Below, piece by piece: positions 35,949 through 58,040 of a stretch of 63,450 bases of DNA; within the stretch, counting starts at the first letter, position 1; every line of letters starts with the position of its first letter. Source of the stretch: Patescibacteria group bacterium (GTDB lineage: Bacteria; Patescibacteriota; Saccharimonadia; CAILAD01; JADZBC01); contig JBPOIL010000018.1 of NCBI GenBank assembly GCA_052034495.1, positions 1 to 63,450 on the forward strand, given 5' to 3'. The notes below the pieces were generated by a model. The model was not told where the DNA came from. It worked only from the letters and a program-made list of their open reading frames with translations, and made no database searches. The position numbers were made by a program, and so were the translations under genes.

Positions 35949-37454
<1,506 letters not shown>

Positions 37455-37770: not shown

Positions 37771-39630
37771 ATGGCTCAACAAAAAAACAAACAAGCATCA
37801 CGGTATCCCAAGGCGCGCACGGGTCGCTTGGGTCTTGCTGCAAAGAAAACGAATTCATTTAGCCTTAAGAAGGGGCTTATTGCTGCTGGTTTGGTTGCTA
37901 TTGTCGGTCTTGTTGCCGTGGCTTTTAGCTTCGCTGGCGGGACGCCAGATTATCAGTATTCTATAGCCGAAAAGTGTTCGGGAGACCAGGCTACGCAGTC
38001 GTGTAGAGACCTGAGTGCTGAAGCACTTATATATCGTCTCTACCTCGGGCTCTCCGGCCGCGAACCAAATGCCGGCGAGCTTTCGGAGTGGACACAAAAG
38101 CTTGCCGGCGACCGGGTTAGGCCCCAGGGCGTCATTGAGGTAGGCTTAAGGAATCCTGCATTTACCTCTTTGTCCAATAAGGCGTATGTCGAAAAGTTAT
38201 ACCAAGGTTTCTTTGGCCGTCAGGCAGACACGAATGGGCTAGACTACTGGACCAAACAGCTTGATGCAAACAAGCTTACGCGTGGAGCGGTGGCAATTCG
38301 TTTGGCACAGAGCAGCGAAGCCAAGCGCAAGGCTGCGGCTGGCCTAGATACGCTCATAGCCCAGAACGCACCTATCGTAGTACGCAAAACAGCAGCAACT
38401 CAGCAATCAGACCGTGCAACAAAAAGTGCTCGCCGACTTACAGCAAGCACCCCGAGCTATAGCCGAATAGTCGAGAAAGTTTCCGAGGCTCAAGCTCGAG
38501 AAGTTGCTGCCAGGAACGCTGCACGCAAGGATTTAAAATCTCAAAAGCCAGAAGAAATGTTAAAGAAGCTCAATGAAATTGAAGCTCATGGTCCATTCAT
38601 AGCATCCGTAATTAAGGCCATGCAGAAGGACACAAATTGGCACCGCAAGGTAGAATCAAGCTTTGCCGCTACACAAAAAGATTACTTGGCCTCAAAAGAG
38701 CTATCGGCCTATGCCGCTGACATACCTTACACGGACATAACGAAGACCTACGAGGAGGCGAAGAAGCAGAGTGATTTTTCTAAGGCGAGCTATGCAAAAA
38801 TGCTCACCAGCATTGCCAATATAGAAAAAAGCGCCCGCAGCATCGAAAAGCAATATTGGACGGTGTTAGAAAAACGAGGCCGCACATTCGCTCGATCTAA
38901 ATCGCTCCCTCTGCCTGGCCTGCCGGCGGGCATGAAGTATTGGGTTGACGACACGTATGGCGACAAGCGCGTCCATGTTCTCAAAATCGACTTAACGAAC
39001 CCGAAAGTTTCTTTAAGAGCCTCAAAGCCAGATGAACGGGGTATTACCCCCACGGATTTTGCCAAAAGGACTGGTGCAGTGGCGGCAATCAACGGAGACT
39101 TCTTTACTCCATCTCAAAGCTTCCGTGCGACAGGCCCGGCTGTCGGCCAGGGTGTAGCATGGCAGAATTCATACAACCGCAGTGACTGGTCGTACCTTGC
39201 CTGCACAAACAGCAAGTCGTGCATTATTGATCCGCAGCGCTCTACTACTCCGCCGGCAGCTAGCTATAGCACCGTTGTGGGTGGCTCTCCGGTTCTTGTG
39301 GAGCCAGGTTTTGGCTGGTATTTGAAGCCTGGTGACAACGGCTGTGCACCGTCTTGCTCCGAGCCGGCACCTCGAACCGCTGTCGGCTTAAGCGCAGACA
39401 AGAAGACCATGTGGTGGGTTATGGCCGAAGGCCGCCAAGGATCTGTTACTGGGCTTAGCCTGTATGATCTAACCGGCGTGTTCAAAAAGCTGAATGCCAA
39501 GTGGGCGGTAAACTTAGACGGTGGTGGCAGCTCGGGCATGGTGTTGAACAAGAAACTCGTTAATCGCAGACCTACTGGCGAGCAGACCGAGCGCAAGGTC
39601 GGGAATTCCCTTGGAATAATTATTCGCTAG
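37771..39630 (+). CDS. Paralog family member 1: basic N-terminus, TM, DUF4214 repeats, coiled coil, C-terminal phosphodiester glycosidase (NAGPA/DUF2233-like) domain
   Basis: Shared N-terminus (..GLVAVAFSFAGGTPDYQYS), LYLGLSGREPNAGELSEWTQKLAGDR (DUF4214-type). C-terminal AINGDFF ... NLDGGGSS. Confidence 0.75.
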   Translation: MAQQKNKQASRYPKARTGRLGLAAKKTNSFSLKKGLIAAGLVAIVGLVAVAFSFAGGTPDYQYSIAEKCSGDQATQSCRDLSAEALIYRLYLGLSGREPNAGELSEWTQKLAGDRVRPQGVIEVGLRNPAFTSLSNKAYVEKLYQGFFGRQADTNGLDYWTKQLDANKLTRGAVAIRLAQSSEAKRKAAAGLDTLIAQNAPIVVRKTAATQQSDRATKSARRLTASTPSYSRIVEKVSEAQAREVAARNAARKDLKSQKPEEMLKKLNEIEAHGPFIASVIKAMQKDTNWHRKVESSFAATQKDYLASKELSAYAADIPYTDITKTYEEAKKQSDFSKASYAKMLTSIANIEKSARSIEKQYWTVLEKRGRTFARSKSLPLPGLPAGMKYWVDDTYGDKRVHVLKIDLTNPKVSLRASKPDERGITPTDFAKRTGAVAAINGDFFTPSQSFRATGPAVGQGVAWQNSYNRSDWSYLACTNSKSCIIDPQRSTTPPAASYSTVVGGSPVLVEPGFGWYLKPGDNGCAPSCSEPAPRTAVGLSADKKTMWWVMAEGRQGSVTGLSLYDLTGVFKKLNAKWAVNLDGGGSSGMVLNKKLVNRRPTGEQTERKVGNSLGIIIR

Positions 39631-39716
39631 GGCAGAATAAGTTTGCCTTTCGGTTTTGATTGTATTATGCTTATGCTAAGTATCAATTTTTAAGGATTCT
39701 TTAAGGTAAGGAACCT

Positions 39717-41411
39717 ATGTCAGCAAAACCAACAAGCAAAAAAGCACCAGTCCGTAAAAAAACAACTTTCAAATCAAGCACAGCATCTCGGCCAAAGAGT
39801 CGAGTAGGCAGCACTCTTCTTAAGAGTAGCACTAAAAGGGCCAGTCTCTTTACTAAGCGCAATGGAATTATTGCAGGGGTAATGGCAGCTATTGCAGGCC
39901 TTGCCTTTGTGGCCCTCAGTTTTGCTGGCGGTACACCGGATTACCAGTATTCGGTAAGCGCTAAATGCGCGGGCCAACAGGCTACCCAGAGCTGTAAGGA
40001 CAAATCGGCCGAAGCCGCAGTATATAGAATGTACAAAGGCATACTTGGCTATACCCCAGACTCTGCTGGCTATGCTTTCTGGACGCAGCTGTATGCTGGT
40101 GACCGCACGCCTACGACTACGATTGTAAATAGATTCTTAGCCCAAAGCGCGCCCAAAGCCAAGTTGGGCCCGCTTACGACCAACGAACAGTTTGTAGGTT
40201 ACTTGCAAAAGAACTTTACGGGTAAAACAGCTGCCGCAACCCCCAGTAACTACTGGGTAAAACAGCTCAAAGACAAGAAGATGACCAGAAACGACGTAGC
40301 ACGTAAGTTCATATTCGTAGGGGAATCAGTCAAGTACCACCAGGCAGGCCTGAGCGCTTACTTGGCTACTGCCGCACCAGTTGCTGTTAAGCAAACTGCG
40401 CTTGACGCTCAAAACGAGCTTGCGCGTAAGGCTAAAGTATACGCCGCAGTTAGCACAAAGGAACTCGCAAGCGCAAAGGCAAAGTTCAAGATTGTTGAGG
40501 CTCGCTACAAGGCAGCTAAGAAGCTAGGCGATCAGCGTCAATCAGACGTGTCTCAGGGCGACATTACCAATGCGGAGTCTAATGCATCTGAGGCAAGCGA
40601 ATATGCAGCTCAGGTACGGATCCATTATGTACGGGCTCAAGACGCATGGAATAAGAGCAAAGTCCTAGTTGGTGAGGCCCGAAGACGAGCACAGCGTTCC
40701 CCCGACATTACTACAACGTTAGTGATTAAGAATGCTGAATCTGGTCGCAAGCCAACCGAAGAAGCTCGTCAGCTAAATAGCCAGGCGCAAACACGGGTTG
40801 GATGGGCGAACCAGTCAGTAGCTCAAGCAAAGCAGAAGTATGCGGCCGAGCAAGCCAGGTTAGCCGAAATCCGTAGACAGCAAGAGCTTGCCGCGCAGCA
40901 GGCTGCACAAGAAGGTAGTGGTGGCGGCGCCACAGGGGGAGGAAACATAACAGTCGATCTTAGTGGCGAACCTGCTGCGCCCGGCGCAGACTTGGCGGCT
41001 TTGCGGGACGAGGCGGCTAGGGCATGTGCCGCCCAGGGTGGGGGTACAGCGAGGAGGCGTGTTGCACACGGGTATGCACTTGCAAAACGAATCTATTCCT
41101 TTTCGGGGAGATTTGATAACAGCGGTGCAATCTGTGAATTTAGATATGGTTCCTTTGTTGCCGGCAGCCTTAATTGCGATGCTGGCTATAAGCAAGCTCA
41201 TAGAACCGACTTAGGGCGTGGGTGTGTTAGGGTCAACATCAGACCAACAGCTGGTAACCCATCACCTACACGATACTACTGTAAGAAGCCAAATCAACAC
41301 CGGTTCTATAAGGGCAATGGCAAGTGGGGCTATATAGGGCCATTCTTGCTCGTCACGAAAAACTCATGTGACGCACTAGGGGGCATCATTAAGTACACGA
41401 CTGCGCGTTAG
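39717..41411 (+). CDS. Paralog family member 2: basic N-terminus, TM, DUF4214 repeats, Ala/Lys coiled coil, Cys-rich C-terminal domain
   Basis: KKAPVRKKTT..SRPKSRVGS..LFTKRNGIIAGVMAAIAGLAFVALSFAGGTPDYQYS; YRMYKGILGYTPDSAGYAFWTQLYAGDR. Confidence 0.75.
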   Translation: MSAKPTSKKAPVRKKTTFKSSTASRPKSRVGSTLLKSSTKRASLFTKRNGIIAGVMAAIAGLAFVALSFAGGTPDYQYSVSAKCAGQQATQSCKDKSAEAAVYRMYKGILGYTPDSAGYAFWTQLYAGDRTPTTTIVNRFLAQSAPKAKLGPLTTNEQFVGYLQKNFTGKTAAATPSNYWVKQLKDKKMTRNDVARKFIFVGESVKYHQAGLSAYLATAAPVAVKQTALDAQNELARKAKVYAAVSTKELASAKAKFKIVEARYKAAKKLGDQRQSDVSQGDITNAESNASEASEYAAQVRIHYVRAQDAWNKSKVLVGEARRRAQRSPDITTTLVIKNAESGRKPTEEARQLNSQAQTRVGWANQSVAQAKQKYAAEQARLAEIRRQQELAAQQAAQEGSGGGATGGGNITVDLSGEPAAPGADLAALRDEAARACAAQGGGTARRRVAHGYALAKRIYSFSGRFDNSGAICEFRYGSFVAGSLNCDAGYKQAHRTDLGRGCVRVNIRPTAGNPSPTRYYCKKPNQHRFYKGNGKWGYIGPFLLVTKNSCDALGGIIKYTTAR

Positions 41412-41476
41412 CAGAATTCTACTCTAGAGAGCCCCAATAAGTAGAGAACCCTCTTGGTGTAGGAGCAGAAGTTGGT

Positions 41477-41737
41477 TTAATAGTCGGCGTTGATCGGGCT
41501 AAATACGTCGCGGATGCCGTCGTTGATCGGCTGGGTCAGCCAGGTGCCTAAGCCAGTGGCGAATAGTAGGCCTATAAACACTGCAAGCAAGCTCATTAGC
41601 TTTAAGAAGCTCGAGCTACCTCCTGGTAAGCGCTTTTCTACAAAGTCGATGCGACCAGTCATGTTGAATACTTGTTGATGGTATACGAGGGACGCTGCCC
41701 CGCCTACTACAAGGAATAAGCCAATAAGAAAATTCAT
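41477..41737 (-). CDS. Small membrane protein (2 TM)
   Basis: 86-aa hydrophobic ORF; its ATG follows an AT-rich promoter-like region. Confidence 0.5.
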   Translation of the reverse strand: MNFLIGLFLVVGGAASLVYHQQVFNMTGRIDFVEKRLPGGSSSFLKLMSLLAVFIGLLFATGLGTWLTQPINDGIRDVFSPINADY

Positions 41738-41828: not shown

Positions 41829-41905
41829 TGGGCGATTAGCTCAGGTGGTTAGAGCGCGTCACTGATAATGACGAGGTCCCAGGTTCAAGTCCTGGATCGC
41901 CCACC
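41829..41905 (+). tRNA. tRNA-Ile(GAU): tRNA-Ile (anticodon GAU), CCA encoded
   Basis: Manual cloverleaf: GGGCGAT/ATCGCCC acceptor, GCTC/GAGC D-stem, CGTCA-CTGATAA-TGACG anticodon arm, CCAGG-TTCAAGT-CCTGG T-arm, then A-CCA. Confidence 0.95.
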
Positions 41906-42008
41906 AAGCATAAGTATTATAGATATAGGCCCCATCCGAGGGGTCTTTTCATTTCCTGCTTTCCAGGGTGTGATGTTGCTACTCTGTCCGAGCATTCAGT
42001 ACGGGTTT

Positions 42009-42635
42009 CTACCTGAGCTCAATAGGCTTTATCGGCAGTCCGGTAGCTTTTTTGCGCATACAATGAGCCACCTCGTGGATAAGGTCTAAGATATCTCCGT
42101 CGAGCATGAACTCAAATAGAACTTTTTGATCATGCAGATCGTCTGTAATCTCATACTCAACCTTATCTCCGCCTCCCCGCCATGTATCGCGAGTGTGTGC
42201 AGGGTATTCTGCCAGTCGCTTCCTGCCCCCGGTAGTGAAGTGAAACATATTCCCGTGGGCCACCCCGTTTCTTAGGTGATAGACCATTTCAAGCGCTGGG
42301 TCGTGACCGAAGTAGCCGGGGTCAAGAGCATCGGCCAAAACTATCAATGCATCGGCCATATATGCTTTCTTGAAATCGTCAAGCTTGGTTGGTACTTTTG
42401 CCAAGAAGACCTCTGGTGCGAATCCATGCTGGTCTATTGAGTTTTTTCTCTCGATAGTCGCCCATTCGTTGGAGTTTGGAAGTAGCTGAAATGCTCTCGG
42501 GTCATGGGCAACCATAAGAGATGCTAGGAGGACTGGGTAGTTACTGCTTAGGCGTTGCGCTAGCGCTTCGACACGCAGAGCAGCATCACGAGTCTCCCCA
42601 TCTTCGTATACTGGTTCGTCGTCAGTGTATTTCAT
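42009..42635 (-). CDS. Hypothetical protein with a HEPN-type Rx4H motif (possible Abi/HEPN RNase)
   Basis: 208-aa ORF. The motif YHLRNGVAHGN matches the R-x4-H HEPN signature in a predicted helical protein. It is the first gene after tRNA-Ile. Confidence 0.55.
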   Translation of the reverse strand: MKYTDDEPVYEDGETRDAALRVEALAQRLSSNYPVLLASLMVAHDPRAFQLLPNSNEWATIERKNSIDQHGFAPEVFLAKVPTKLDDFKKAYMADALIVLADALDPGYFGHDPALEMVYHLRNGVAHGNMFHFTTGGRKRLAEYPAHTRDTWRGGGDKVEYEITDDLHDQKVLFEFMLDGDILDLIHEVAHCMRKKATGLPIKPIELR

Positions 42636-42995
42636 AGGATCATTATATGCCGAGCCTTGGCCTATTGATAGCTACCCTCGTCAGCGCGATAATCCTCTAA
42701 TAAAGAGAACATCCTCATCGCAACAAGTAACACATCAAAGGACGCGAGTTCGAAGCGCAAGTCTGGACCACCGCCCGGTCGTAAGCCAGGCAGAGGTAAG
42801 GTAGTTATCAATCCCAAGCTGAAGGCAGAGCCAGACTTAGAGAAGTTCGCCACAGCCATCGTCTTTGATGTTCTAGATAAGCTCAACAAGGCTCGCTCCG
42901 ACGACTCTGAATCTAGACAGTAGGCTCGCTATATGGTATAAACATAGGGACTAAGGCGGCTATCAGCCGCTTTGTGTTTGCTCCTTGAATTGTGT

Positions 42996-43074
42996 TCTTC
43001 AGACCGGATCATTGCTCACCTCTGCTGAGTAGCGACCCGGTCTGCAAGGACTGTGGTCACAAAGGAGCCCGCCC
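42996..43074 (+). repeat. Element A, copy 1: conserved leader with a long hairpin plus GACTGTGGTC..AGGAGCCCGCC immediately before the ATG
   Basis: CAGACCGG(43000-07)/CCGGTCTG(43037-44) stem extended by about 9 further pairs. Near-identical copy at 44117-44198. Confidence 0.8.
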
Positions 43075-43989
43075 ATGAGCGAGCGAAACTGGAATGAACT
43101 GCTCGCGGCCCAACAGGCCAAGGGCAGGTTCGTCTGCGTTGGCCTCGACAGCGACGTCGACAGCCCGAAGTTCCCCACCCATCTCGCCGACAAGCGGTTC
43201 TCGAACAGCCAGTTCGCGTTCAACCAGTCGATCGTCGACGCGACCAAGGACATCGCGGGCTGCTACAAGCCGAACCTCGCGTTCTACCGCGGTGACGCCG
43301 GCAAGCGGTCGCTGCAGCGGATCATCCAGTACATCAATCGGGTGGCTCCGACCGTCCCGGTCATCCTCGACGCCAAGTGGGGCGACATCGGCAACACCAA
43401 CGACGGCTACGTCGCGGACCTCGGTGAGTTCTACGGCGCCGACGCGGTCACCGTCCACAACTACATGGGGATGGAGGCGATGAAGCCGTTCCTCGACCAG
43501 GGGAACAAGGGCATCATCGTGCTGTGCCGTACCTCCAACCCTGGTTCGGACGAGATGCAGTCGATCCTCGTCCAGGCATGGACTCAGGAGGAGGGGGAGG
43601 TCCTTTACCCGCAGCGCGAGGAGGTTCCGGGTGGGCCCGTTCACTCGGTGCTCGTTCCCAACTACCAGTACGTCGCCAATCGCGTGGCGAACCAGTGGAA
43701 CATCAACGGGAACTGCGCCCTCGTGGTCGGCGCGACCTACGCCGACGTCGAGCTGGCCATCGTGCGGGAGATCGTCGGCGACATGCCGATCCTCCTCCCT
43801 GGCATCGGCGCTCAGGGCGGTGACCTCGAGGCGACCATCGACAACGGTCGCAACTCGCAGGGTCAGGGCATGATCGTCAACAGCTCGCGCGGGATCATCT
43901 TCGCCTCCAGCGATCATGACTTCGCTCAGCGAGCTGGCGAGGAGGCGGCCAAGCTGCACGGAGCCATCACGGCTCGGCTCGCTGCCTGA
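43075..43989 (+). CDS. pyrF: Orotidine-5'-phosphate decarboxylase, type 2 (actinobacterial-type), high GC
   Basis: FVCVGLDSD, ILDAKWGDIGNT and LPGIGAQGG motifs. Third codon positions are almost all G/C. Two hand-counted 60-nt lines gave 60 % and 67 % GC. Confidence 0.85.
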   Translation: MSERNWNELLAAQQAKGRFVCVGLDSDVDSPKFPTHLADKRFSNSQFAFNQSIVDATKDIAGCYKPNLAFYRGDAGKRSLQRIIQYINRVAPTVPVILDAKWGDIGNTNDGYVADLGEFYGADAVTVHNYMGMEAMKPFLDQGNKGIIVLCRTSNPGSDEMQSILVQAWTQEEGEVLYPQREEVPGGPVHSVLVPNYQYVANRVANQWNINGNCALVVGATYADVELAIVREIVGDMPILLPGIGAQGGDLEATIDNGRNSQGQGMIVNSSRGIIFASSDHDFAQRAGEEAAKLHGAITARLAA

Positions 43990-44100
43990 CGGCACACCAC
44001 AAGCAAGGAGCTCTGTGCCAGCTCCGGGATGAACTCCCGGGGCTGGCCACTGCCACGAGTCACTCAGCAATTGAGTGGTTCATGGCAGTGAAAGCACTGC
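43987..44100 (+). repeat. Element B, copy 1: roughly 110-nt three-hairpin element directly after the cassette stop codon
   Basis: Hairpins GGCACA/TGTGCC, CCAGCTCCGGGA/TCCCGGGGCTGG (12 bp) and CACTGCCACGAGTCACTCA/TGAGTGGTTCATGGCAGTG (19 positions). Second copy at 44876-44990. Confidence 0.8.
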
Positions 44101-44116
44101 ATCGCTCTTTACATAC

Positions 44117-44198
44117 ATTTCAGACCGGATCGTTGCACGCTTCTAAGTAGGCGACGACCCGGTCTGAAGAAGACTGTGGTCCCAATTAGGAGCCCGCC
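44117..44198 (+). repeat. Element A, copy 2
   Basis: CAGACCGG(44121-28)/CCGGTCTG(44159-66), then GACTGTGGTCCCAATTAGGAGCCCGCC-ATG. Confidence 0.8.
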
Positions 44199-44615
44199 AT
44201 GTGTGCGAGCGAGACGGTAGGTGTAGTCCCGGTCCGCGTTCGCTACGCGGTCTGGTTCGGGCCCGAAGAGTCGGACATCTTCGACTGCGAGGTCGGGCGC
44301 AAGGCACCCGATGAGTTCGTCCTGGATCCAGCGGCGGACTACTTCCAGTTCTACGACCGCATGGTCGTCGATCTCGAAGTGGAGGAAAGAGGAACCCTCC
44401 GGCTTGTCAGCCCGCGGCTCAACGAGTCGCCGTACTACGTCCCGGGTGGGCTCATCCTCGAGGGAGAGGAGCGTGCTGCTGCCTTCGCGCCCGGTGGGCC
44501 CTTGGCCAACATCGGCTCACGGGAGGATGACATCGTCGTTCGGTCTCGTTACCGAACCCTCTGCTTCGGTGCACAGACCGGAGTGGTCGTTCTTCCGGCT
44601 CCGCCAACCCAATGA
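44199..44615 (+). CDS. High-GC hypothetical protein (138 aa)
   Basis: GC3-rich frame, AGGAG 8 nt upstream, and an ATGA overlap with the next ORF. Confidence 0.65.
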   Translation: MCASETVGVVPVRVRYAVWFGPEESDIFDCEVGRKAPDEFVLDPAADYFQFYDRMVVDLEVEERGTLRLVSPRLNESPYYVPGGLILEGEERAAAFAPGGPLANIGSREDDIVVRSRYRTLCFGAQTGVVVLPAPPTQ

Positions 44616-44878
44616 GTGCGGCTGCCAAGTTGCCCCGCAAGCCCTTCTTCTGCGGGCTGGGCCTTCACAGCTGGTTCATCGACAGGGCAATGCTCACTCG
44701 TGCGAAGCAGTGCCGCCGCTGCGAGGTCTACAAGGATGAGCAGGCCGGCCGGCGGCTTGAGTTCGAGCGCGAGGTTCGAGCATGGGCAGCCACCAGCTTT
44801 CCTTCCGAGGCGGCAGACGAACTCGTTCGGCTCAACCTCAGGGGCTGGGACGTCCTTCAGGTCATGCACAGCGCTTGA
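44612..44878 (+). CDS. High-GC hypothetical small protein with a CxxxxH...CxxC zinc-ribbon-like segment (88 aa)
   Basis: GC3-rich frame, translationally coupled (4-nt overlap) to the upstream ORF. FFCGLGLHSW...CRRCEVY. Confidence 0.6.
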   Translation: MSAAAKLPRKPFFCGLGLHSWFIDRAMLTRAKQCRRCEVYKDEQAGRRLEFEREVRAWAATSFPSEAADELVRLNLRGWDVLQVMHSA

Positions 44879-44990
44879 CGGCATACCACAACGCAAGGAG
44901 CTCTGTGCCAGTTCCGGGATCCGTCCCGGGGCTGGCCATTGCCACGAGTCACTCAATAGATGAGTGGTTCATGGCAGTGAGAACTGCAGT
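44876..44990 (+). repeat. Element B, copy 2
   Basis: Same three hairpins as copy 1. The three stem substitutions I compared (one per hairpin) are C-to-T opposite G, keeping G-U pairs on the + strand. The loop sequences differ. Confidence 0.8.
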
Positions 44991-45040
44991 TCCTTAACTT
45001 GGCCTAATCCCAGGCCCCTACAAAGAAAAGGGGGCCTGAG

Positions 45041-45430
45041 ATGGCTTCTGTTCTGTCCCTCCTGCTCGCCACCTTGGTGGTCGGCACGATCTACAACTTC
45101 GTCGACGTAGCCGTCGACAGAGACAGGCCCTTCCGGCCAGTCCATGCCATGCTGGAAAACCCCCTCATGTGGGCCGCTTCCTACGGCATCGCGCTCGTGG
45201 CTGGAGCGGTGGCCTTGCTGCTGAACGTCAGCCTCGATCCGTGGCTCACGCTGTTCATCGTGGGGGTCGTGTCCTTCATCATCGCAACGCTCCTCATCCT
45301 CACCGACAAGACGGTCAAGAACAAGGCGAAGGAGTTCCGCAACTGCTTCGTCGGCTTGGTCTCCTTCGCCCTGGTGTCCGGTTGCACCGCTGCCGGCACC
45401 CTCTGGCTGCTCAGCCTGAGCGGGAGCTGA
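45041..45430 (+). CDS. High-GC integral membrane protein (4 TM, 129 aa)
   Basis: GC3-rich frame and hydrophobic segments. Confidence 0.65.
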   Translation: MASVLSLLLATLVVGTIYNFVDVAVDRDRPFRPVHAMLENPLMWAASYGIALVAGAVALLLNVSLDPWLTLFIVGVVSFIIATLLILTDKTVKNKAKEFRNCFVGLVSFALVSGCTAAGTLWLLSLSGS

Positions 45431-45434
45431 CGTC

Positions 45435-45767
45435 ATGAACATCAACGACTACGAGGCCATTGCCGCTGATCCGGCACTGGTGGAGAAGATCCGGTTCGGA
45501 ACCTTCTATGCCATGGGCAGGTCCAAGGATCCTCGCTTCGTCGCGAAGTGGGCCGAGGTACCAGAGGCGGAGAAGGCTGCGGCTGGTGTCGTCGGCCTCG
45601 AGGCCCTTCGGTCTCTGGTAGACGACTACACGACTCCTGGTTGCAGGTGCAAGTACTGCACCTGGAAGGGCGAGTCGACCCACGGGCGACTGATCATGTG
45701 CACGCAGCGGTGGGACCGACTCTCCCCAGAGGAGCGTCGCACGATCGGTGAGTCGTGCGCCGACTGA
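45435..45767 (+). CDS. High-GC hypothetical Cys-containing protein (110 aa)
   Basis: GC3-rich frame 4 nt after the upstream stop. CRCKYC..C motif. Confidence 0.6.
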   Translation: MNINDYEAIAADPALVEKIRFGTFYAMGRSKDPRFVAKWAEVPEAEKAAAGVVGLEALRSLVDDYTTPGCRCKYCTWKGESTHGRLIMCTQRWDRLSPEERRTIGESCAD

Positions 45768-45810
45768 CAGCAAGCACTACCCGAACCCCCGTGGTTCGGT
45801 TGGGCACCAA

Positions 45811-45857
45811 GGCCCACGGAGAGACTTACGTCCCGCCCGTGGGCCTCTTCAGTTTTT
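45811..45857 (+). terminator. GC-rich intrinsic terminator closing the high-GC array
   Basis: GGCCCACGG-N17-CCGTGGGCC followed by TCTTCAGTTTTT. Confidence 0.65.
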
Positions 45858-45902
45858 GGGCTTAGCTACGTCTAAGAATGCAAGTTTTGTTATAATAGGC
45901 GG

Positions 45903-46490
45903 ATGAAGAGCCTTAACGATCTCGCGGAAATCTATGAGCGGACACTTGTCTTGCCAAAGGTTAAGCCTGAGCCGCAGTTTTACCTTGTCTCGGTTGGGCT
46001 AATGGGTTCAGGTAAGAGCACCGTGCTGAAGAGGCTTTCTGAAATGCTAGGCCTGGTACGGATATGTGGCGATGATATTAGGAAAGTGGTTTTTGAGAAT
46101 GAAGGGAACGAGGAGGATACCTGGGAGATTGGAAGACGAGTCGTTGAGAAGTATGTAGCTCAGGGGTATAGTATCGCCCATGACACAGACGGCGCAACCG
46201 CTAAGACACAAGCCGCGATTGCTAAGCAAGCGCAAGAGTATGGCGTTAAGACCGTCTGGGTCCACGTCAACCCGCCAGAGAGTTTTATACTGGCGAACCT
46301 GGATCGGCCTAAGCCGAAGTGGCTTTTTGAGAGCCAAGAAGCGGCTAGAGCAAAATATCTAGAGCGCAAGAAGCTTCATGAGAACCTCGATATCCAGTTT
46401 GCATTTGAGTTTGATCCATCGAGATCAGACTTCGAACTACAGATAGAACAGGCAGCAGCTGGGATACAGGGCCTTCTTCTCGCCCAATAG
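45903..46490 (+). CDS. P-loop NTPase/kinase (AAA_33 / zeta-toxin-like fold)
   Basis: Walker A GLMGSGKST. About 195 aa, typical of small nucleotide or polynucleotide kinases. Backbone-like GC. Confidence 0.6.
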   Translation: MKSLNDLAEIYERTLVLPKVKPEPQFYLVSVGLMGSGKSTVLKRLSEMLGLVRICGDDIRKVVFENEGNEEDTWEIGRRVVEKYVAQGYSIAHDTDGATAKTQAAIAKQAQEYGVKTVWVHVNPPESFILANLDRPKPKWLFESQEAARAKYLERKKLHENLDIQFAFEFDPSRSDFELQIEQAAAGIQGLLLAQ

Positions 46491-46512
46491 TCAGAGGCTC
46501 GGGCCTCTTTCG

Positions 46513-46947
46513 TTACTTTGGCGGCCAACCTCGGCGAGGTCGAAGGGTAACGTTAGCCCTCAGGAAGCGCTTACGAACGGTAGAAGCATCCAGGCCATAC
46601 TGTTGACCTATAACAGATAGCGAGTTACCATTGTTGTAGGCACGAATAGCAGCTGCCAAGGTCTGCTCATCCCATTTGAGGGATTCTCCGACAGTTGGCA
46701 CTCCTCTTCGTCTGAGGTGATTCATCACCGTGGTTCGTCCGACTCCAAAGGTCGATGCGAGCTCGAGGATGGAAGCACCCGCCAATCGGGCATCTAGTAA
46801 GTCATCGACCTCACTCTCAGTGAGGCGTACTTGTGCCTGACGAGGCCCACGGGGCCGTCGGGTAGAGATCAAGCGCTCAGACACCTGGTCAACAACCACA
46901 AGCGGTATTGACAAGGGGTTTGAGAGCTGTCCTAGTAGGTCCACCAT
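46513..46947 (-). CDS. DNA-binding protein with two resolvase/Hin-type HTH modules and no catalytic recombinase domain
   Basis: LTESEVDDLLDARLAGASILELASTFGVGRTTVMNHLRR and SLSVIGQQYGLDASTVRKRFLR. The track ORF start (47004) overlaps tRNA-Ala, so the internal ATG at 46947 is preferred. Confidence 0.55.
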   Translation of the reverse strand: MVDLLGQLSNPLSIPLVVVDQVSERLISTRRPRGPRQAQVRLTESEVDDLLDARLAGASILELASTFGVGRTTVMNHLRRRGVPTVGESLKWDEQTLAAAIRAYNNGNSLSVIGQQYGLDASTVRKRFLRANVTLRPRRGWPPK

Positions 46948-46997
46948 TGATAGGGGGTGGCGCTGGCTTACGCCAGCAACACTCCACCATAGTTTTT

Positions 46998-47074
46998 GGG
47001 GCATTAGCTCAGCTGGTTAGAGCGCCTGCTTTGCAAGCAGGAGGTCGTCGGTTCGACTCCGACATGCTCCACCA
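46998..47074 (+). tRNA. tRNA-Ala(UGC): tRNA-Ala (anticodon UGC), G3-U70 present, CCA encoded
   Basis: GGGGCAT/ATGCTCC acceptor (G3-U70), CCTGC-TTTGCAA-GCAGG anticodon arm, GTCGG-TTCGACT-CCGAC T-arm. Confidence 0.95.
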
Positions 47075-47159
47075 AAGAAAGCGTCCGAGTTTATCTCGGG
47101 CTTTTTCTTTGGGCAGATTTTATTTTGTGCTACGATGGGTGCAACCAAGGAAAACAAAC

Positions 47160-48428
47160 ATGGCAAACAAAGATTTGAGTACGCAAGACAAAACCCATTT
47201 AGCTCATGCAATCGCCTATCATCCGGAAAAGCGGTTGGACGTGTATTTGGGCATCGATGCCGAAGCACGGCCTGAAGTGTTTTCCTTGCTGAGCAAGGCC
47301 ACTAGACAGGCTTTGGTCCATCAGTTGTCCGACGAAGACCTGATAAGTTTGCTTAACAGCTTAGACCCAGATGACGCTACCGATGTATTGCAGCTGCTGA
47401 GCCGACACCGCCAAGACAAGGTAATGTCCGAGGTTAGCGAGGCCCTACGAGATTCTGTGTCGGGCTTGTTGCAGTTCGATCCAGACACCGCGGCTGGGTT
47501 GATGACCCTAGACTATGTGCAGGTAGACATGAAGGAAACCGTTGCTGACGTGTCGCGTAAGTTTAAACAGCACGAAAAGCGTACGGGTAGGCCGCCGGTA
47601 GTGCTGGTGCAGAACGAAGGCAAGCTGGTCGGCTTTTTGCCCGGGCACGAACTAGGCTTTGCTGCCCGCACGGAAAAGGTGGGACGGTATGTTAAAAAGC
47701 TTGCCACTATTCATCATTCAGCAAGCCATAAGGAAGTGATTCAGGTATTTAAAGCCCACCCGCACAGCAAAGTGGCGGTACTTAATGATGATGATAGCGT
47801 GCTTGGTATTATCTATTCCGATGATGTACTGCAGTTGCTTCATCAGCAAGAATCGGCATCTCTTTACGACTTCGCCGGTGTAAGCGATGAGGAAACCGTG
47901 ACAGATGGGGCTAGGCGCAAGATTCAGCTGCGCTACAAGTGGCTAATTATCAACTTGGGCACAGCATTCTTGGCCGCCTTTACCGTTGGCCAGTTCGAGG
48001 GGGTGCTAAGCAAGTTTGTACTTCTGGCTGTATATATGCCAATCGTCGCTGGCATGGGTGGCAATTCAGCTACGCAGACTTTGGCTGTGATGGTGCGCGG
48101 TATCGCGCTGCGCCAGGTTGATTTAAGCACGGCCTACAGGACGTTGCGGAGTGAGCTTGGCTCTGGGCTTGCCAATGGCTTGATTAACGGTTTACTCGTA
48201 GCGCTCGTAGTGTTAATTGTGAACAGAGACGCAAAGATTGCTCTCATATTGGCACTAGCGATGGTAGTGAACCTGCTCGTTGCTGCTACATTCGGTACAA
48301 TGGTGCCATTGATTATGTCTAAGCTCAAGAAAGACCCCGCTGCCTCGGCTACCATATTCATTACAACTGCCACCGACGTACTCGGCTTCCTGGTATTTCT
48401 AGGTCTTGCCACTCTCATTCTTATGTAA
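47160..48428 (+). CDS. mgtE: Magnesium transporter MgtE
   Basis: MgtE N-domain, CBS pair, and a 5-TM C-terminal domain with ...PIVAGMGGNSATQTLAV... The track ORF (46908) runs through the tRNA, so ATG 47160 is chosen. Confidence 0.88.
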   Translation: MANKDLSTQDKTHLAHAIAYHPEKRLDVYLGIDAEARPEVFSLLSKATRQALVHQLSDEDLISLLNSLDPDDATDVLQLLSRHRQDKVMSEVSEALRDSVSGLLQFDPDTAAGLMTLDYVQVDMKETVADVSRKFKQHEKRTGRPPVVLVQNEGKLVGFLPGHELGFAARTEKVGRYVKKLATIHHSASHKEVIQVFKAHPHSKVAVLNDDDSVLGIIYSDDVLQLLHQQESASLYDFAGVSDEETVTDGARRKIQLRYKWLIINLGTAFLAAFTVGQFEGVLSKFVLLAVYMPIVAGMGGNSATQTLAVMVRGIALRQVDLSTAYRTLRSELGSGLANGLINGLLVALVVLIVNRDAKIALILALAMVVNLLVAATFGTMVPLIMSKLKKDPAASATIFITTATDVLGFLVFLGLATLILM

Positions 48429-49751
48429 ATGCGCTACAATAGTAGTATGACAAAACGAAATACAAAAGTTGGCCTCGTGCTTACTTGGCTTGTCGCCTTA
48501 GCACCAATCGCAATAGTCGCGACCTTTGGCCCGCGGCCGGCCGACCAGGCTTTGCAAACGGTGATCGACAGCTTTGCCCGTATGGCTGGGTTTATAGGTT
48601 TTACTCTCTTTGCCTGGAACTTGATTTTATCAGCGCGAATCCTATGGCTGGAGAAACAGTTCGGTGGGCTCGATAAGCTTTACAAGGTCCACCATACGGT
48701 TGGTGGCATAGCGTTCATCGCCATGCTCGTACATCCCACGCTCCTGACTATTAAATACGCTACCATTTCATTTGCGTCGGCCTATAGCTTTTTACTGCCA
48801 ACGCTCGATGATGTGGCGCTGCAGGCTGGCAAGGTGGCTCTGGGTGGCATGTTCGTCGTGCTGTTCATTACGTTCTATGTCTGGGTGAGCCACGAGCGGT
48901 TTATGTGGATCCATCGACTCACGGGCGTGCTGTTCGCCTTTGCTGTCTACCACGCCTTTTTTGTAACGGGCAGCAGGGTGTTGCAGATTCCTGTGCTCGC
49001 GTTCTATCTAGGGTTACTGAGCTTAACTGCGCTTGGGTTGTTTGGCTATAGGTATGCTTTTAAGAGCCTCAAGCCACGCCGGCGATACAAGGTCTCTAAT
49101 GTGGAAGACTTGAACGGGGCCTGGGAGATTAGTATGAGCCCAACGTCTCGCGGCATCGATCACGTAGCTGGTCAGTTTGCGTTCCTGACCTTTACAAGCT
49201 CAAGTCTGCCGCAGCAGACTCATCCATTCACGATTGCATCGGCACCCAGCGAGAAAGACCTGCGCTTTGTTATCAAGAACCTTGGTGACTTTACGGCCAA
49301 GTTGGGCGAGCTGAAGGTTGGCGACCATGTGTTTGTAGAGGGTCCATACGGAACATTTAATTATGCCAATATGTCGCGCAAGAGGCAGGTGTGGGTAGCA
49401 GGGGGAATTGGAGTCACGCCATTTCTAAGTATGGCTCGTAGCTTCGAGCAGAGTGACGGGGTTGAGGCGCACTTGTTCTACTCAGTTGCGGATGAAACCC
49501 AAGCATATGGCTCCGAGGAGCTGACTCGTTTAAGCGCAGGGCTCAAGGGCAGCTTGGACTTTATGCTGCATGATAGCAGTAAGCAGGGCTTCATATCGGT
49601 TGAGCAAATTGCAAAACACGTGCAGGACCTGGTTGAGTGCGAAGTTTTGCTGTGTGGGCCAAAGGGTATGATGAAGGCACTTGAAGCCCAGTTTGTAGCT
49701 GCCGGAGTAAGCAAAAAGCATATTCAGTACGAGGAGTTTTCATTACTATGA
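48429..49751 (+). CDS. Ferric-reductase/NOX-like membrane flavoprotein (FRD TM domain plus FAD- and NAD-binding domains)
   Basis: Six TM helices with conserved His residues, HPFTIAS (FAD-binding), GGIGVTPF (NAD-binding), CGP near the C-terminus. Confidence 0.8.
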   Translation: MRYNSSMTKRNTKVGLVLTWLVALAPIAIVATFGPRPADQALQTVIDSFARMAGFIGFTLFAWNLILSARILWLEKQFGGLDKLYKVHHTVGGIAFIAMLVHPTLLTIKYATISFASAYSFLLPTLDDVALQAGKVALGGMFVVLFITFYVWVSHERFMWIHRLTGVLFAFAVYHAFFVTGSRVLQIPVLAFYLGLLSLTALGLFGYRYAFKSLKPRRRYKVSNVEDLNGAWEISMSPTSRGIDHVAGQFAFLTFTSSSLPQQTHPFTIASAPSEKDLRFVIKNLGDFTAKLGELKVGDHVFVEGPYGTFNYANMSRKRQVWVAGGIGVTPFLSMARSFEQSDGVEAHLFYSVADETQAYGSEELTRLSAGLKGSLDFMLHDSSKQGFISVEQIAKHVQDLVECEVLLCGPKGMMKALEAQFVAAGVSKKHIQYEEFSLL

Positions 49752-50221
49752 CGAGTGTAAGAGATTTTACCAAGCGAGTGTTTGGCACCAGCAAGATTAT
49801 GACTGCAGTTGCCATTGCGATGATCATAGTCAGCGTTGTAATGGGCGGGCTGTTCGTCGCTGGCTGGGCAGACAAGCAACAAAAGGAGGACTTGGCTGAG
49901 CAAAGAATGACTCCAGGAGCCACCACTCCTACACTCAACCAGGGTCAGGCGCCGACTGTGGCGAATCAAAAAACCTACACCACTGCAGAGGTTGCTCAGC
50001 ATAATTCAGTGGAGGATTGCTGGATGATAATCGGTTCAGGTGTGTACAATCTAACGAGCTTCCTACGTCAGCATCCGGGCGGGGTACAGAGTATGGCTAA
50101 ATACTGTGGCCAAGATGGTACCCAGGGGTTTGAAACTTTGGACAGAGGACAAGGCCAAAGTCACTCAAGTAGCGCGAGTATGCTCAAAGAAGATTACAGG
50201 ATCGGCACACTCGCCAACTAG
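49748..50221 (+). CDS. Membrane-anchored cytochrome b5-like heme-binding domain protein
   Basis: 4-nt overlap with the reductase gene. N-terminal TM. HNSVEDCWMIIGSGVYNLTSFLRQHPGG is the Cyt-b5 signature. Confidence 0.8.
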   Translation: MTSVRDFTKRVFGTSKIMTAVAIAMIIVSVVMGGLFVAGWADKQQKEDLAEQRMTPGATTPTLNQGQAPTVANQKTYTTAEVAQHNSVEDCWMIIGSGVYNLTSFLRQHPGGVQSMAKYCGQDGTQGFETLDRGQGQSHSSSASMLKEDYRIGTLAN

Positions 50222-50770: not shown

Positions 50771-51265
50771 ATGCCCCGCAAAAACACAACCACCAAAAAG
50801 AATCATGGCAAATACCGATCTAAGAAGAGGCCGAAGCCTAGTCTTTTTACTCTCAACTTCCAGTCATGGATGGTCGTGCCAATCGTTGCAATTACGATTA
50901 TCATGGGCTTTGCGTGGGTAAGCCTTACCAGGGCGAGCACTGTGCCGCCACCGCCATGTAATGGTGTAAATATGTGTGCGCCGGTTCCGACTGGTGTGCC
51001 AGAGCTTATCGAATATTGGTCGGAGTACTATGGCCTGGACGGAACCCGTATGCTGCGGATAGCACAGTGTGAATCCAAGTTGAACCCGAGCGCCCAAAGC
51101 CGCGGCGGGCACTACGGGGTCTACCAGTTCCTGTCTACCACGTACGCTGCTAATCACAAGGCAGCTGGTGCAGGGCCAGACTACATGGACGCCGGCAGCA
51201 ACATTCGCACAGCGGCCTATATGTTCAGCATTGGCCAAGCTTGGCAATGGGAGTGCAAAGGATAG
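50771..51265 (+). CDS. Rpf-like transglycosylase domain protein (secreted or membrane-anchored)
   Basis: N-terminal basic segment plus TM. IAQCESKLNP...GVYQF is the transglycosylase-like (Rpf) motif. Promoter TTGAAT-17-TATGCT at 50722-50750. Confidence 0.7.
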   Translation: MPRKNTTTKKNHGKYRSKKRPKPSLFTLNFQSWMVVPIVAITIIMGFAWVSLTRASTVPPPPCNGVNMCAPVPTGVPELIEYWSEYYGLDGTRMLRIAQCESKLNPSAQSRGGHYGVYQFLSTTYAANHKAAGAGPDYMDAGSNIRTAAYMFSIGQAWQWECKG

Positions 51266-51330
51266 GAGTTGTATTTGTATCTAGATACTATTATGCTTAT
51301 GCTAACTATAAATTAAGGGAATATTAAGCT

Positions 51331-52326
51331 ATGGCAGTAAACAAAAAAGCACCTGTACGCAAAAACACTACGAAAACCAGATCTAATGTCGGCGGCTCAT
51401 CTCTGGGCAAAAAGACCACTCTGTTTAGTAAGCGCAACGGTCTCATCGTGGCAGGGCTAGCAGCGATTGTAGGCCTCGTGTTTGTGGCTTTTAGTTTTGC
51501 TAGCGGCCCTTCTATGGGCGCATACCAGTACTCTTTGAATAATTGTAAAATGCTTCGAGCAAGCGGCACTACTGGCAAACTTTTGCCACAGACTAAACAA
51601 ACACAGAATTGTATAAATAAGTCTGCCGAATCTGCAGTGTATAGGACGTACATAGGAGTCCTCGGTAGAACCCCAGACATCAGTGGATACCAGTACTGGA
51701 CGCAAAAGTTGGCCGGAGACAAGGTTGCATCAACTTTGGTCGTTAGAAGCTTCTTAAGCTCGAGCCAGGTCAAGAATAAACTTGCGCCACTGAAGACGAA
51801 CGAAGAATTCGTGGCTTATTTGGCGAAGAACTTCCAGGGTAAAACTACTTTGACTAGTTATGACAAATACTGGTTGAAGCGACTAGATAACAAAAAGAAA
51901 ACACGAAGTGAGGTAATCCGCCAGTACATCTTTGCTAAAGAGACAGTTGCCTACCAACAGGCCGGCTTTGATTTATTCCTCGAAGACGCGCCTAGAGTAA
52001 GTGTGGTTGTCTATGCAAAGAAGGGCGAGTACGCCAACCCGACTGCTACCCCAACCTGCGAAGCGGGCTACAGCCTCATAACCAACAAGATCAAAGAAAC
52101 TTCACGATACGCTGGCGGTGCTATAAGTAGCTATGGTTGCGGCCGCGCTGCCGCCAGTAAGCCAGACTTAGACGAAAACGGAGAATTACGGAACGTTACT
52201 CCTAAGCTTGCTTGCCCAGCGGGCTATAAATCTACAGCTGTACGCGGCAACGGCACGAGGTTCTATGACTCCACCACCGGTGGCTACTACCCATCTAGCA
52301 CTAATGTGGCCTGCAAGAAGTCCTAG
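51331..52326 (+). CDS. Paralog family member 3 (short): basic N-terminus, TM, DUF4214 repeats, Cys-rich C-terminus
   Basis: KKAPVRKNTT..LFSKRNGLIVAGLAAIVGLVFVAFSFASG; YRTYIGVLGRTPDISGYQYWTQKLAGDK. Confidence 0.75.
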   Translation: MAVNKKAPVRKNTTKTRSNVGGSSLGKKTTLFSKRNGLIVAGLAAIVGLVFVAFSFASGPSMGAYQYSLNNCKMLRASGTTGKLLPQTKQTQNCINKSAESAVYRTYIGVLGRTPDISGYQYWTQKLAGDKVASTLVVRSFLSSSQVKNKLAPLKTNEEFVAYLAKNFQGKTTLTSYDKYWLKRLDNKKKTRSEVIRQYIFAKETVAYQQAGFDLFLEDAPRVSVVVYAKKGEYANPTATPTCEAGYSLITNKIKETSRYAGGAISSYGCGRAAASKPDLDENGELRNVTPKLACPAGYKSTAVRGNGTRFYDSTTGGYYPSSTNVACKKS

Positions 52327-54369: not shown

Positions 54370-54615
54370 CTATACGAATAACAGCAAGAGCAGGCTAATT
54401 AGCATTACAAGTAGTGATATAGTTAACATTATCCCAGCCATGTCCCAGCTCCATGCCGGAGCGCTAAACTTATATATGTATTGAGTCTTATCCACCTGCA
54501 CAGGGGCGGGAGCTGTTTGGCCAGGGGTAGAGTTCGCCGCGATGTAGTTGGCTACACAGTCACTGAGTCGAATGTTCTCTAAAAGGTTCGGATAAGTGGC
54601 ATGAGCTGCCAACAT
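54370..54615 (-). pseudogene. Truncated copy of the 56615..57151 membrane-protein gene (C-terminal third only)
   Basis: 81-aa ORF whose residues SDCVANYIAANSTPGQTAPAPVQVDKTQYIYKFSAPAWSW align with the C-terminus of the 178-aa paralog. Near-identical DNA at 54520-54560 and 56770-56810. Confidence 0.55.
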
Positions 54616-57233: not shown

Positions 57234-57491
57234 ATAATACAAAAGAGAAGGGGCCGAGCATGATCGCTCGGCCCCGCACTCGTCGTTGAGTGTCCTCTCG
57301 TCTTGAGCGCTACTCCTCGGCACCCTTGTCACGTGCTGGCGGCAGGTCCTTCAGTCCCGTTCCCCTTGGCAGATCCACCGGAGGCGCGTTGCGCTTGATG
57401 CCCGAAGGTCCCCTGCGGTCTGCGACAGCCGATGGGTCGTCGCCGCGAGCCTGGTGGTCCGGACGGCAGTCAGGTGGGTGAGCCTTGCGGC

Positions 57492-57931: not shown

Positions 57932-58040
57932 TGTGTGATGAGCTCCCCTTTGGCGCTGTGGCCAAGTTGACGATAGGTAGTGATTATTCTACGCTCGAAA
58001 CGAAAAATGTCAAGGTTAATCCATTTGTTATAATGGTGAT

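Follow-up and report, generated by a model that had tools for sequence, protein, structure and literature searches.

A Saccharibacterial protein family with exchangeable C-terminal heads on a predicted surface-display scaffold containing DUF4214

We describe a family of modular proteins encoded on a stretch of DNA of 63,450 nucleotides (hereafter the window) from a Patescibacteria group bacterium, namely contig C30 of a 36-contig, 885-kb genome with a completeness of 98%. Our preferred interpretation, to which we assign a probability of about 0.6, is that these proteins form a lineage-restricted Saccharibacterial family, exported by the Sec pathway and displayed at the envelope, in which a conserved anchor presents one of several C-terminal heads. 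The relatives recovered with the N-terminal module of the family bear the title Candidatus Saccharibacteria. Swapping of the C-terminal modules, or tips, between strains is demonstrated. The members are candidates for functions at the cell surface or in contact with the host, and we infer that targeting of the host surface or of teichoic acids may be among these functions.

Saccharibacteria and other bacteria of the candidate phyla radiation (CPR) live attached to host bacteria. The surface molecules known to govern attachment and host range comprise type IV pili and a few adhesins identified by transposon sequencing (PMC10633639), the rest being largely obscure. The present family constitutes a concrete set of candidates: a scaffold of DUF4214 repeats and a helical stalk, combined with a phosphodiester glycosidase that is probably active (judging from its sequence and modelled fold), a D,D-peptidase, and disulfide-rich tips reassorted between strains and genera. 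The family also lends itself to finding out what is bound by DUF4214, a domain of unknown function that is widespread. No paper linking DUF4214 or phosphodiester glycosidases to Saccharibacteria was found in the literature searched.

An earlier note on this DNA had recognized five members in the window, and all five are present as open reading frames (ORFs) at the positions it gave, on the + strand. The count of five was nevertheless too low, seven members being found in the genome. A hidden Markov model (HMM) of the N-terminal module, covering the first ~240 residues, scores m1 to m5 at E 1e-98 to 1e-117 and finds two further, more distant members, m6 and m7, on contig C14.

37771-39630, + strand: m1, 619 aa; ORF with two Pfam DUF4214 repeats and a NAGPA domain
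39717-41411, + strand: m2, 564 aa; ORF with two DUF4214 repeats and a six-Cys tip
51331-52326, + strand: m3, 331 aa; without a stalk; tip at 52012-52323 with two C[EP]AGY...C units
52400-54178, + strand: m4, 592 aa; stalk at 53150-53632 (AlphaFold2), six-Cys tip at 53693-54175
54681-56426, + strand: m5, 581 aa; six-Cys tip of another type at 55941-56423
Contig C14, 89129-90316: m6, 395 aa; C-terminal VanY/M15 peptidase
Contig C14, 87358-88554: m7, 398 aa; C-terminal Big_7 Ig-like domain

Over the first ~240 residues, m1 to m5 are 40-45% identical in pairwise comparison and share 43 invariant columns, which include G..YQYS, C..C, SAE and YR.Y. Each carries two stretches of DUF4214 (PF13946; E 4e-12 to 2e-20, 46.5-73.3 bits, against a Pfam gathering score of 23.2 bits), so the 'one or two' repeats first suspected are two in every one of the five. 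DUF4214 also scores above this threshold in m6 (36 bits) and m7 (31.6 bits). The VanY domain of m6 reaches 29.5 bits with PF02557 (cut-off 25), and its zinc-ligand motif, H-x6-D...H, is intact in sequence as SMHQWGLAID and EPWHY. At 90% identity, each of m1, m2 and m4 stands as a singleton among ~15 billion proteins; a word-index search with the whole of m2 returned only three proteins, its candidate list being saturated by low-complexity words.

The family is sparsely distributed. Within the class, 11 of 200 genomes and three of 117 genera contain DUF4214, and the genome studied here has the largest number of copies. A tree of the N-terminal module resolves three subfamilies, corresponding to the Ig, VanY and stalked members. 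Within the stalked clade, m2 and its allele from another strain (P0002, introduced below) group with m3, and m1, m4 and m5 form deep unresolved branches. This topology, together with the saturation of synonymous divergence (dS) between paralogues, indicates that these are old paralogues and not the outcome of a recent burst.

The shared architecture is best illustrated by m1, whose parts are as follows.

37771-37872, + strand: basic N-region, aa 1-34, net charge +10, predicted cytoplasmic
37873-37935, + strand: hydrophobic helix, aa 35-55, ending S-F-A; Kyte-Doolittle 2.64; helix 32-54 in the AlphaFold2 model
37942-38004, + strand: TPDYQYS motif and conserved Cys...Cys loop, aa 58-78, with invariant columns
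38014-38331, + strand: two DUF4214 repeats, aa 82-129 and 136-187; PF13946 E 2.8e-19; helical, at a predicted local distance difference test (pLDDT) score of 83-96
38389-38874, + strand: helical stalk, aa 207-368, with helices 207-252, 260-314 and 321-368 (AlphaFold2)
39073-39618, + strand: NAGPA catalytic head, aa 435-616; PF09992
39517-39531, + strand: DGGGS loop within the head, aa 583-587, from the sequence

Alignment and a topology scan bear out the basic N-terminus, the hydrophobic helix and the TPDYQYS motif as common to the five members. Across the seven members and 18 relatives from other genomes, the basic region spans 24-50 residues, with a net charge of +8 to +15 in most, and is followed in all 25 by a single hydrophobic helix of ~20 residues; no further hydrophobic segment was found in any of them. 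By the positive-inside rule, a basic N-region followed by one helix places the bulk of the protein outside the cytoplasm. A cytoplasmic topology, which had been named in advance as an argument against a surface role, is therefore not what the scan predicts. Routes of attachment other than the helix were rejected from the sequence: there is no lipobox Cys as in a lipoprotein, no C-terminal LPXTG or hydrophobic tail as in a sortase substrate, and no twin arginine as in a Tat substrate. The predicted cytoplasmic tail (residues 1-50 of m1 to m5) retains the motifs KKAPVRK, SRPKSRTGS and LFTKRNG at a ratio of nonsynonymous to synonymous divergence (dN/dS) of 0.16-0.39, above that of the rest of the protein, and a similar tail is found in the SLT lytic transglycosylase encoded next to m3.

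The description of the family as membrane-anchored holds insofar as the hydrophobic N-terminal helix is present, but it is unsettled, since the S/T-x-A motif behind the helix could be a signal-peptidase site; the helix of m1 may be either a signal-anchor or a cleavable signal peptide. In the latter case the proteins would be released, not anchored: the Sec signal peptide that is removed would have a basic n-region of unusual length, the mature protein would begin near GGTPDYQYS, and it would either be retained by non-covalent binding of DUF4214 alone or diffuse to the host. A small-x-small motif directly behind the helix in all 25 proteins (SFA|G, SLA|S, TQA|S, TFA|S) speaks for such processing, the SLT neighbour has a similar layout (LTRA|S after its helix), and the motif and the residues that follow it are the best-conserved part of the protein in the alignments (dN 0.07-0.13). 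Against this, the hydrophobic stretch of ~20 residues exceeds the usual length of an h-region and would suit a membrane span, the AlphaFold2 helix runs continuously through the motif, and it is hard to see why a signal peptide destined for removal should conserve KKAPVRK, SRPKSR and LFTKRNG in its basic tail. We regard release as possible, if on the unlikely side, and favour display at the envelope.

An AlphaFold2 model of m4 was computed from a family alignment of 19 sequences. In it, residues 103-242, the DUF4214 region, fold into a compact domain of helices; pLDDT is mostly 82-94 there and falls to 71-75 at residues 161-200. Four of the five members carry a helical stalk beyond it, m3 being without one. 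The earlier note had described this segment as a long coiled coil; its helical nature stands, but the prediction for m4 shows three helices of 43-59 residues (251-293, 297-341 and 353-411, pLDDT 90-98) and not one extended coiled coil. We read the stalk as an antiparallel three-helix bundle that, in the model, would be ~7-8 nm long. For the stalk of m1, Foldseek yields nothing but generic three-helix-bundle matches. The stalk is a homologous domain and not mere low complexity, the loop between helix 2 and helix 3 being conserved (DI..DP.Y / SPDI).

Two leads from other bacteria bear on the DUF4214 repeats. The domain has been proposed to anchor surface proteins of segmented filamentous bacteria (SFB; PMC12780176), and the RTX-DUF4214 protein Psh of P. 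putida binds O-antigen (bioRxiv 10.64898/2026.09.02.748959).

Of the heads, that of m1 is the most readily recognized, and the NAGPA-like C-terminus assigned to it from the letters alone is confirmed by profile and by fold. PF09992 matches at E 9e-31 and 107.8 bits (Pfam cut-off 25 bits) over model positions 2-168 of 169, and the DUF2233/NAGPA proteins 3ohg and 6pki of the PDB are matched by sequence. In Foldseek the modelled head aligns with 3ohg at E 2e-10 and with 6pku and 6pki at E 1e-9 to 4e-9, all at probability 1.00, with TM-scores (normalized to the target) of 0.46-0.53 at a sequence identity of 17-23%; an insertion at residues 445-505 is of low confidence in the AlphaFold2 model. DGGGS is strictly invariant in NAGPA and critical for substrate recognition and catalysis, according to a structural study of 2026 (PMC13474241). 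The m1 head retains DGGGS as well as the AINGDFF and PRTAVG blocks, and by sequence and model it is probably an active enzyme of the GlcNAc-1-phosphodiester alpha-N-acetylglucosaminidase type. Of 300 genomes in the class, 12 encode a NAGPA head; of 58 other genomes in the order, none does. Nearest to the m1 head is a protein of 317 aa (51% identity over 241 residues) from another family of the class, which consists of a signal or anchor and the NAGPA domain only. Since the head stands alone in that relative and is absent elsewhere in the order, it was joined to the DUF4214-stalk scaffold in the present lineage.

The tips of m2 to m5 are of a different kind, with 97-163 residues and four or six Cys. 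None matched a Pfam or PHROG family above threshold, and permissive scans gave chance-level hits only. An exhaustive HMMER search with the m4 tip against 1.84 billion representatives returned one near-identical match and one chance match; region-restricted searches with the tips of m2 and m5 against 5.8 billion proteins returned only the query itself or a 99% copy. The earlier note had called the C-termini unrelated, and BLASTP among the tips of this genome indeed gave nothing significant. For m1, m3 and m5 no similarity to the others is detectable, but m2 and m4 depart from that description. Their tips contain six Cys each in similar spacing ([36,14,16,19,29] against [38,12,13,15,33]; p 0.002 under random placement) and, with Cys fixed, their other residues align better than 99% of shuffles (p 0.01). 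Seven control pairs gave no signal in these tests. The tips of m2 and m4 are probably remote homologues.

Tip types also recur between genera, which is a further departure from unrelatedness. Among 13 Cys-rich tips from six genomes, the inter-genus pairs that pass Bonferroni correction are L013a-L048 (p 1e-5), m4-L049 (4e-5) and P0002-L044 (2e-4). The tips therefore appear to constitute a limited, old pool of types, distributed as a mosaic over the scaffolds. The tips of relatives include an M64-like zinc protease with PG_binding_1 and further Cys-rich modules. Wherever a tip is recognizable as an enzyme it is predicted to be directed at the cell wall: NAGPA, VanY/M15 and, in relatives, the M64-like protease with PG_binding_1.

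Direct evidence of exchange comes from two alleles on metagenome contigs, P0002, an allele of m2 on the 2.6-kb contig L025 from another sample, and P0004, an allele of m4 on L026; for P0003, an allele of m5, no contig is on record. The parts of m2 and of the intergenic region before it are listed below.

39629-39649, + strand: terminator-like hairpin directly 3' of the m1 stop codon, by consensus scan only
39663-39679, + strand: upstream element TATTATGCTTATGCTAA, with exact copies at 51289 and 52350 (before m3 and m4)
39864-39926, + strand: m2 hydrophobic helix, aa 50-70, preceded by a basic region of 49 residues, net charge +15
40005-40340, + strand: two DUF4214 repeats of m2, aa 97-146 and 156-208
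40377-40913, + strand: helical stalk of m2, aa 221-399, homologous to the m4 stalk by alignment
40914-40994, + strand: Gly/Pro-rich linker of m2, the recombination breakpoint zone, where identity to P0002 collapses
40995-41408, + strand: Cys-rich tip of m2 with six Cys; the tip in strain L025 is unrelated

Along m2 and P0002, identity per 40-residue window is 65-92% up to about residue 400 (65-88% in the stalk) and falls to noise beyond the linker. At the DNA level the 5' 1.1 kb is 55-83% identical per 60-nt window (73.7% overall) and the 3' flank 63-82%, so that both flanks align, while the ~540 bases of the tip between them (40934-41470) are unalignable. The m4 locus presents the reverse: its stalk is only 50-70% identical to that of P0004, with synonymous sites saturated (proportion of synonymous differences, pS, 0.79), but linker, tip and 3' flank are 88-100% identical per DNA window, mostly at least 95%, with a tip dS of 0.057. 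Tips have thus been swapped between strains, and the combination of a conserved anchor with a variable tip that was postulated at the outset is substantiated by recombination in both genes. In the comparison of m2 with P0002 the shared part is under purifying selection (dN/dS 0.06-0.11 over 350 codons, dS >1.2), and the two are accordingly old, constrained alleles; for the pairs of paralogues dN/dS was uninformative, their dS being saturated.

Gene content varies as well, as a comparison of copy number among strains demonstrates. In L025 m1 is missing, the 3' end of the 16S rRNA gene leading directly to the m2-like gene, and in L026 m5 is missing, the m4-like gene leading directly to the gene that follows m5 here. 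In the window m4 and m5 form a 2.26-kb tandem unit with a common 5' end (73%) and 3' flank (83%), the tip not being shared. The order of SLT, m3 and the m4-like gene, together with the m3 tip, is kept in two further strains, L050 and L051.

Polymorphic toxins are recognized by just such a layout, in which C-terminal tips recombine behind a conserved N-terminal part, and the earlier note had likened the family to polymorphic surface or effector families. Under such a scheme the N-terminal part would deliver, upon contact, variable tips acting as toxins against competitors or the host. The genes downstream of the tips are pertinent to this scheme.

41477-41737, - strand: 86-aa two-helix membrane protein, convergent to m2; no family match
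54370-54615, - strand: truncated 81-aa duplicate of the 3' end of the 178-aa gene, after m4; a scar of the m4/m5 segmental duplication
56615-57151, - strand: 178-aa convergent membrane protein with a C-terminal helix, after m5

In the sense of toxins, the effector reading did not survive these comparisons. No tip of m2 to m5 reaches the cut-off of a toxin family; the best is a match of the m4 tip to Ntox44, which at 13.9 bits (E 0.07) could be taken in its favour but lies below the cut-off of 24 bits. No small co-oriented ORF follows a tip, the downstream neighbours being the convergent membrane proteins above. Although the tip is replaced in L025, the 86-aa gene behind m2 stands there in the same position at 83% identity, and the 178-aa gene that lies behind m5 here is 92% identical where it stands directly behind the m4-like gene of L026. 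Because these genes are conserved across the change of tip, nothing immunity-like travels with it. Orphan tip cassettes were not found either (11 tip modules, searched by tblastn in the entire genome, recovered the parent genes only), nor did a Pfam scan reveal RHS/YD, filamentous-haemagglutinin or other known delivery repeats. Toxin delivery of this sort is in our estimation highly improbable.

In the mechanism that we propose for anchored display, the proteins would be exported by Sec, the basic N-region and helix placing them N-in/C-out, with the helix either kept as a signal-anchor or cleaved at S/T-x-A. The membrane-proximal disulfide loop and two DUF4214 repeats (three in some relatives) would fasten the protein to a glycopolymer of the wall or surface, as the leads from SFB and Psh suggest. 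The three-helix bundle of ~7-8 nm, together with the Gly/Pro linker, would serve as a spacer, so that the head might be held ~10-20 nm out, as estimated from helix lengths. The head would perform the work, whether as an enzyme acting on wall glycopolymer or peptidoglycan (NAGPA in m1, VanY in m6, the M64 protease with its peptidoglycan-binding domain in relatives), as an Ig-like domain, or as a disulfide-rich module, most likely ligand-binding; we infer that its targets are the wall of the epibiont itself or the host surface. Each gene would have its own promoter, the probable promoter being TATTATGCTTATGCTAA with its -10-like TATGCT, an element duplicated with the genes whose only exact copies in the genome are the three listed, and the terminator-like hairpin follows m1. 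Homologous recombination at the linker and in the 3' flank would carry heads from one scaffold to another, so that strains would come to differ in the heads displayed and in the number of members.

Exchange between strains, along with gain and loss of members, suggests a diversifying pressure, and a variable partner (the surface of the host, or phages for which these proteins serve as receptors) would fit better than housekeeping. The competing view is that the proteins are the bacterium's own autolysins or wall remodellers, tethered to its own wall by DUF4214 much as choline-binding or CWB2 proteins are in Firmicutes, and engaged in envelope maintenance with no specific host role. Heads such as VanY/M15, NAGPA and M64 with PG_binding_1, and the SLT neighbour, are what ordinary wall turnover would employ; the VanY and Ig members correspond one to one between genomes of the genus and occupy a constant position behind the 5S rRNA gene, and m3 is stable in three strains. 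Tip replacement, a more than tenfold jump in dS within a single gene, and presence or absence of members between close strains would not be expected of such proteins, nor are the Cys-rich tips enzymes by any search. Moreover, most of the class is without the family (recall the 11 of 200 genomes for DUF4214 and 12 of 300 for NAGPA), which is therefore not essential for wall growth in general. Housekeeping as the sole role of the family seems to us unlikely, less probable even than release, and surface display of variable heads remains our choice.

Several observations weigh against that choice. The three-helix bundle derives from a monomer prediction, and in the same sequences an intermolecular coiled coil is possible. 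The m4 model, searched against the PDB with Foldseek, matched generic (three-)helix bundles alone, none below E 0.001, with nothing informative for DUF4214, a domain for which we know of no solved structure. The Cys-rich tips are modelled at pLDDT <50, no deep alignment being obtainable, and match no family; that they bind ligands is a guess from their size and disulfide content. Swapping is not universal, as the stable tip of m3 attests, and the VanY and Ig members, as stable orthologues, could be plain housekeeping wall proteins. Finally, the contigs L025 (2.6 kb) and L026 (1.8 kb) come from metagenomes and are short. Assembly chimeras are nonetheless an unlikely source of these arrangements, because L026 shows three levels of divergence and the P0002 tip is intact, in frame and has a relative in another genus.

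The design is a familiar one, yet the family is a member of none of the Cwp/CWB2, SLH, choline-binding, Bdellovibrio MAT or polymorphic toxin groups. The Cwp proteins of C. difficile (with three CWB2 repeats), the SLH-domain proteins and the pneumococcal choline-binding proteins each comprise many paralogues that join a common, repeated wall-binding module to differing functional domains, often a hydrolase (amidase, peptidase or glycosidase). The present family is alike in having many paralogues with a common repeat module and differing functional domains, and differs in its DUF4214 repeats, which would bind the wall, its N-terminal membrane helix, its three-helix stalk and the replacement of tips between strains. 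The mosaic adhesive trimers (MAT) of Bdellovibrio bacteriovorus are long, phage-like trimeric fibres, some with an S74 self-cleaving chaperone, and some of their tips bind prey glycans (Caulton et al. 2024, PMC10769870). Both families belong to bacteria that live on other bacteria, and both combine multiple paralogues at the surface (by prediction, in our case) with a conserved stalk and diversified, chimeric tips; the stalk here is instead a short, predicted helical bundle, Pfam finds no S74 or fibre domains, and some tips are enzymes. With the polymorphic toxin systems, reportedly the subject of work by Zhang, Aravind and colleagues in 2012, the family shares the conserved N-terminal part, recombining C-terminal modules and strain variation, but not the toxin domains, co-varying immunity genes, orphan cassettes or known delivery repeats.

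The SFB proteins and Psh resemble the family in joining DUF4214 to varied cargo on secreted or surface proteins. Psh, however, is exported by a type I system with DUF4214 at its C-terminus, whereas the family has a Sec-type N-terminal signal, membrane-proximal DUF4214 in its N-terminal part and C-terminal cargo. The head of m1 has the fold and the DGGGS motif of vertebrate NAGPA, the uncovering enzyme (PMC13474241), and of the bacterial DUF2233 protein 3ohg. The human enzyme likewise holds its head off the membrane on a stalk, which is semi-rigid and ~5 nm long; the tethering of m1 is predicted. The tether of m1 would be N-terminal (type II), made of DUF4214 and a helical bundle, and that of human NAGPA is C-terminal, made of EGF-like domains.

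All seven family genes lie in or just after a single, stretched rRNA operon, co-oriented with its rRNA genes, the assembly containing one 16S and one 23S gene only. The other landmarks of this operon in the window are given here.

35949-37453, + strand: 16S rRNA, immediately upstream of m1 (Rfam RF00177, 1502 bits)
41830-41906, + strand: tRNA-Ile(GAT), a tRNA of the rRNA spacer (Rfam)
46998-47074, + strand: tRNA-Ala(TGC), a tRNA of the rRNA spacer (Rfam)
50771-51265, + strand: SLT lytic transglycosylase (PF01464), with a basic N-region and helix as in the family; syntenic with m3 in L050 and L051
60224-63450, + strand: 5' part of 23S rRNA (Rfam RF02541), cut by the window end

The order is 16S, m1, m2, tRNA-Ile, a 5-kb high-GC island, tRNA-Ala, genes for MgtE, a ferric-reductase-like protein, a cytochrome b5-like protein and SLT, then m3, m4, m5 and, after further genes, 23S, 5S, ORF687, m6 and m7. 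The end of contig C14 supplies the 3' end of 23S and the 5S gene, behind which a surface protein with DUF11 repeats (ORF687), then m6 and m7, are encoded on the same strand. The whole region (window 35949-63450 plus C14 87358-93181) has ~23 kb between 16S and 23S, and ~20 protein-coding genes, mostly co-oriented, lie inside the operon. Unlinked rRNA genes are said to be a known phenomenon (Brewer et al. in 2020 reportedly treat them), and a stretched, co-oriented arrangement of 16S and 23S is common in this order, with gaps of 5-36 kb in five other genomes. In another genus a family member stands behind 16S, tRNA-Ile and tRNA-Ala, in the interval between tRNA-Ala and 23S, and VanY and Ig members follow the 5S gene in two genomes of the same genus. 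A third genus (g44) also possesses stalked members, two of which stand in tandem and differ in their tips, but the nine loci read there contain no rRNA gene. The five same-genus assemblies all lack a 16S gene, and genes of the m1 to m5 type are apparently absent from them, an absence that may for this reason be an artefact of binning. Regions with rRNA assemble and bin badly, and genes in or beside the operon are lost from metagenome bins; the rarity of the family in CPR genomes may hence be partly artefactual.

Saccharibacteria are naturally competent (PMC10633639). In this order it is conceivable that the single stretched operon acts as an exchange platform for surface-protein genes: the near-invariant 16S, tRNA-Ile, tRNA-Ala, 23S and 5S sequences would provide homology arms, DNA taken up from diverged relatives would replace cassettes between them, and the tips would set which host surface is recognized or remodelled. 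In line with this are the position and orientation of all seven members, the member in the tRNA-Ala to 23S interval of the other genus, and the variation of three operon intervals between strains (m1, the 5-kb island and m5). The members of g44 are, however, not near rRNA genes in the loci read, and the observed breakpoints lie inside or beside genes, not in rRNA or tRNA genes. We hold this proposal to be quite improbable, and place it well below housekeeping.

Further features of the locus are recorded here. The 5.1-kb stretch between the two tRNA genes (41907-46997) has a GC content of 0.57-0.61 against ~0.50, contains a pyrF-like gene and bears two 57-nt repeats (44035-44091 and 44924-44980) that are 91% identical; it is absent in L025, where the tRNA genes are ~165 nt apart. 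At 46908-50221 neighbouring genes inside the operon encode MgtE, a secreted protein resembling cytochrome b5, and a flavocytochrome of the ferric-reductase/NOX type (Ferric_reduct with FAD and NAD domains); such a redox trio is unusual where the genome is reduced. Short high-GC patches precede 23S at 57300-58000 and 59100-60000, with an adenylate-kinase-like ORF at 59228-59896 (- strand), and a dienelactone hydrolase gene (58041-58733) lies between them. The 23S gene covers model positions 1-2188 in 3227 nt of the window, and so contains ~1 kb of extra sequence, an insertion or intron; neither C30 nor C14 contains model positions 2189-2527. ORF687 itself (C14 90329-92392, - strand, 687 aa), situated between 5S and m6, carries DUF11, DUF7927 and DUF7507 repeats and is a probable surface protein.

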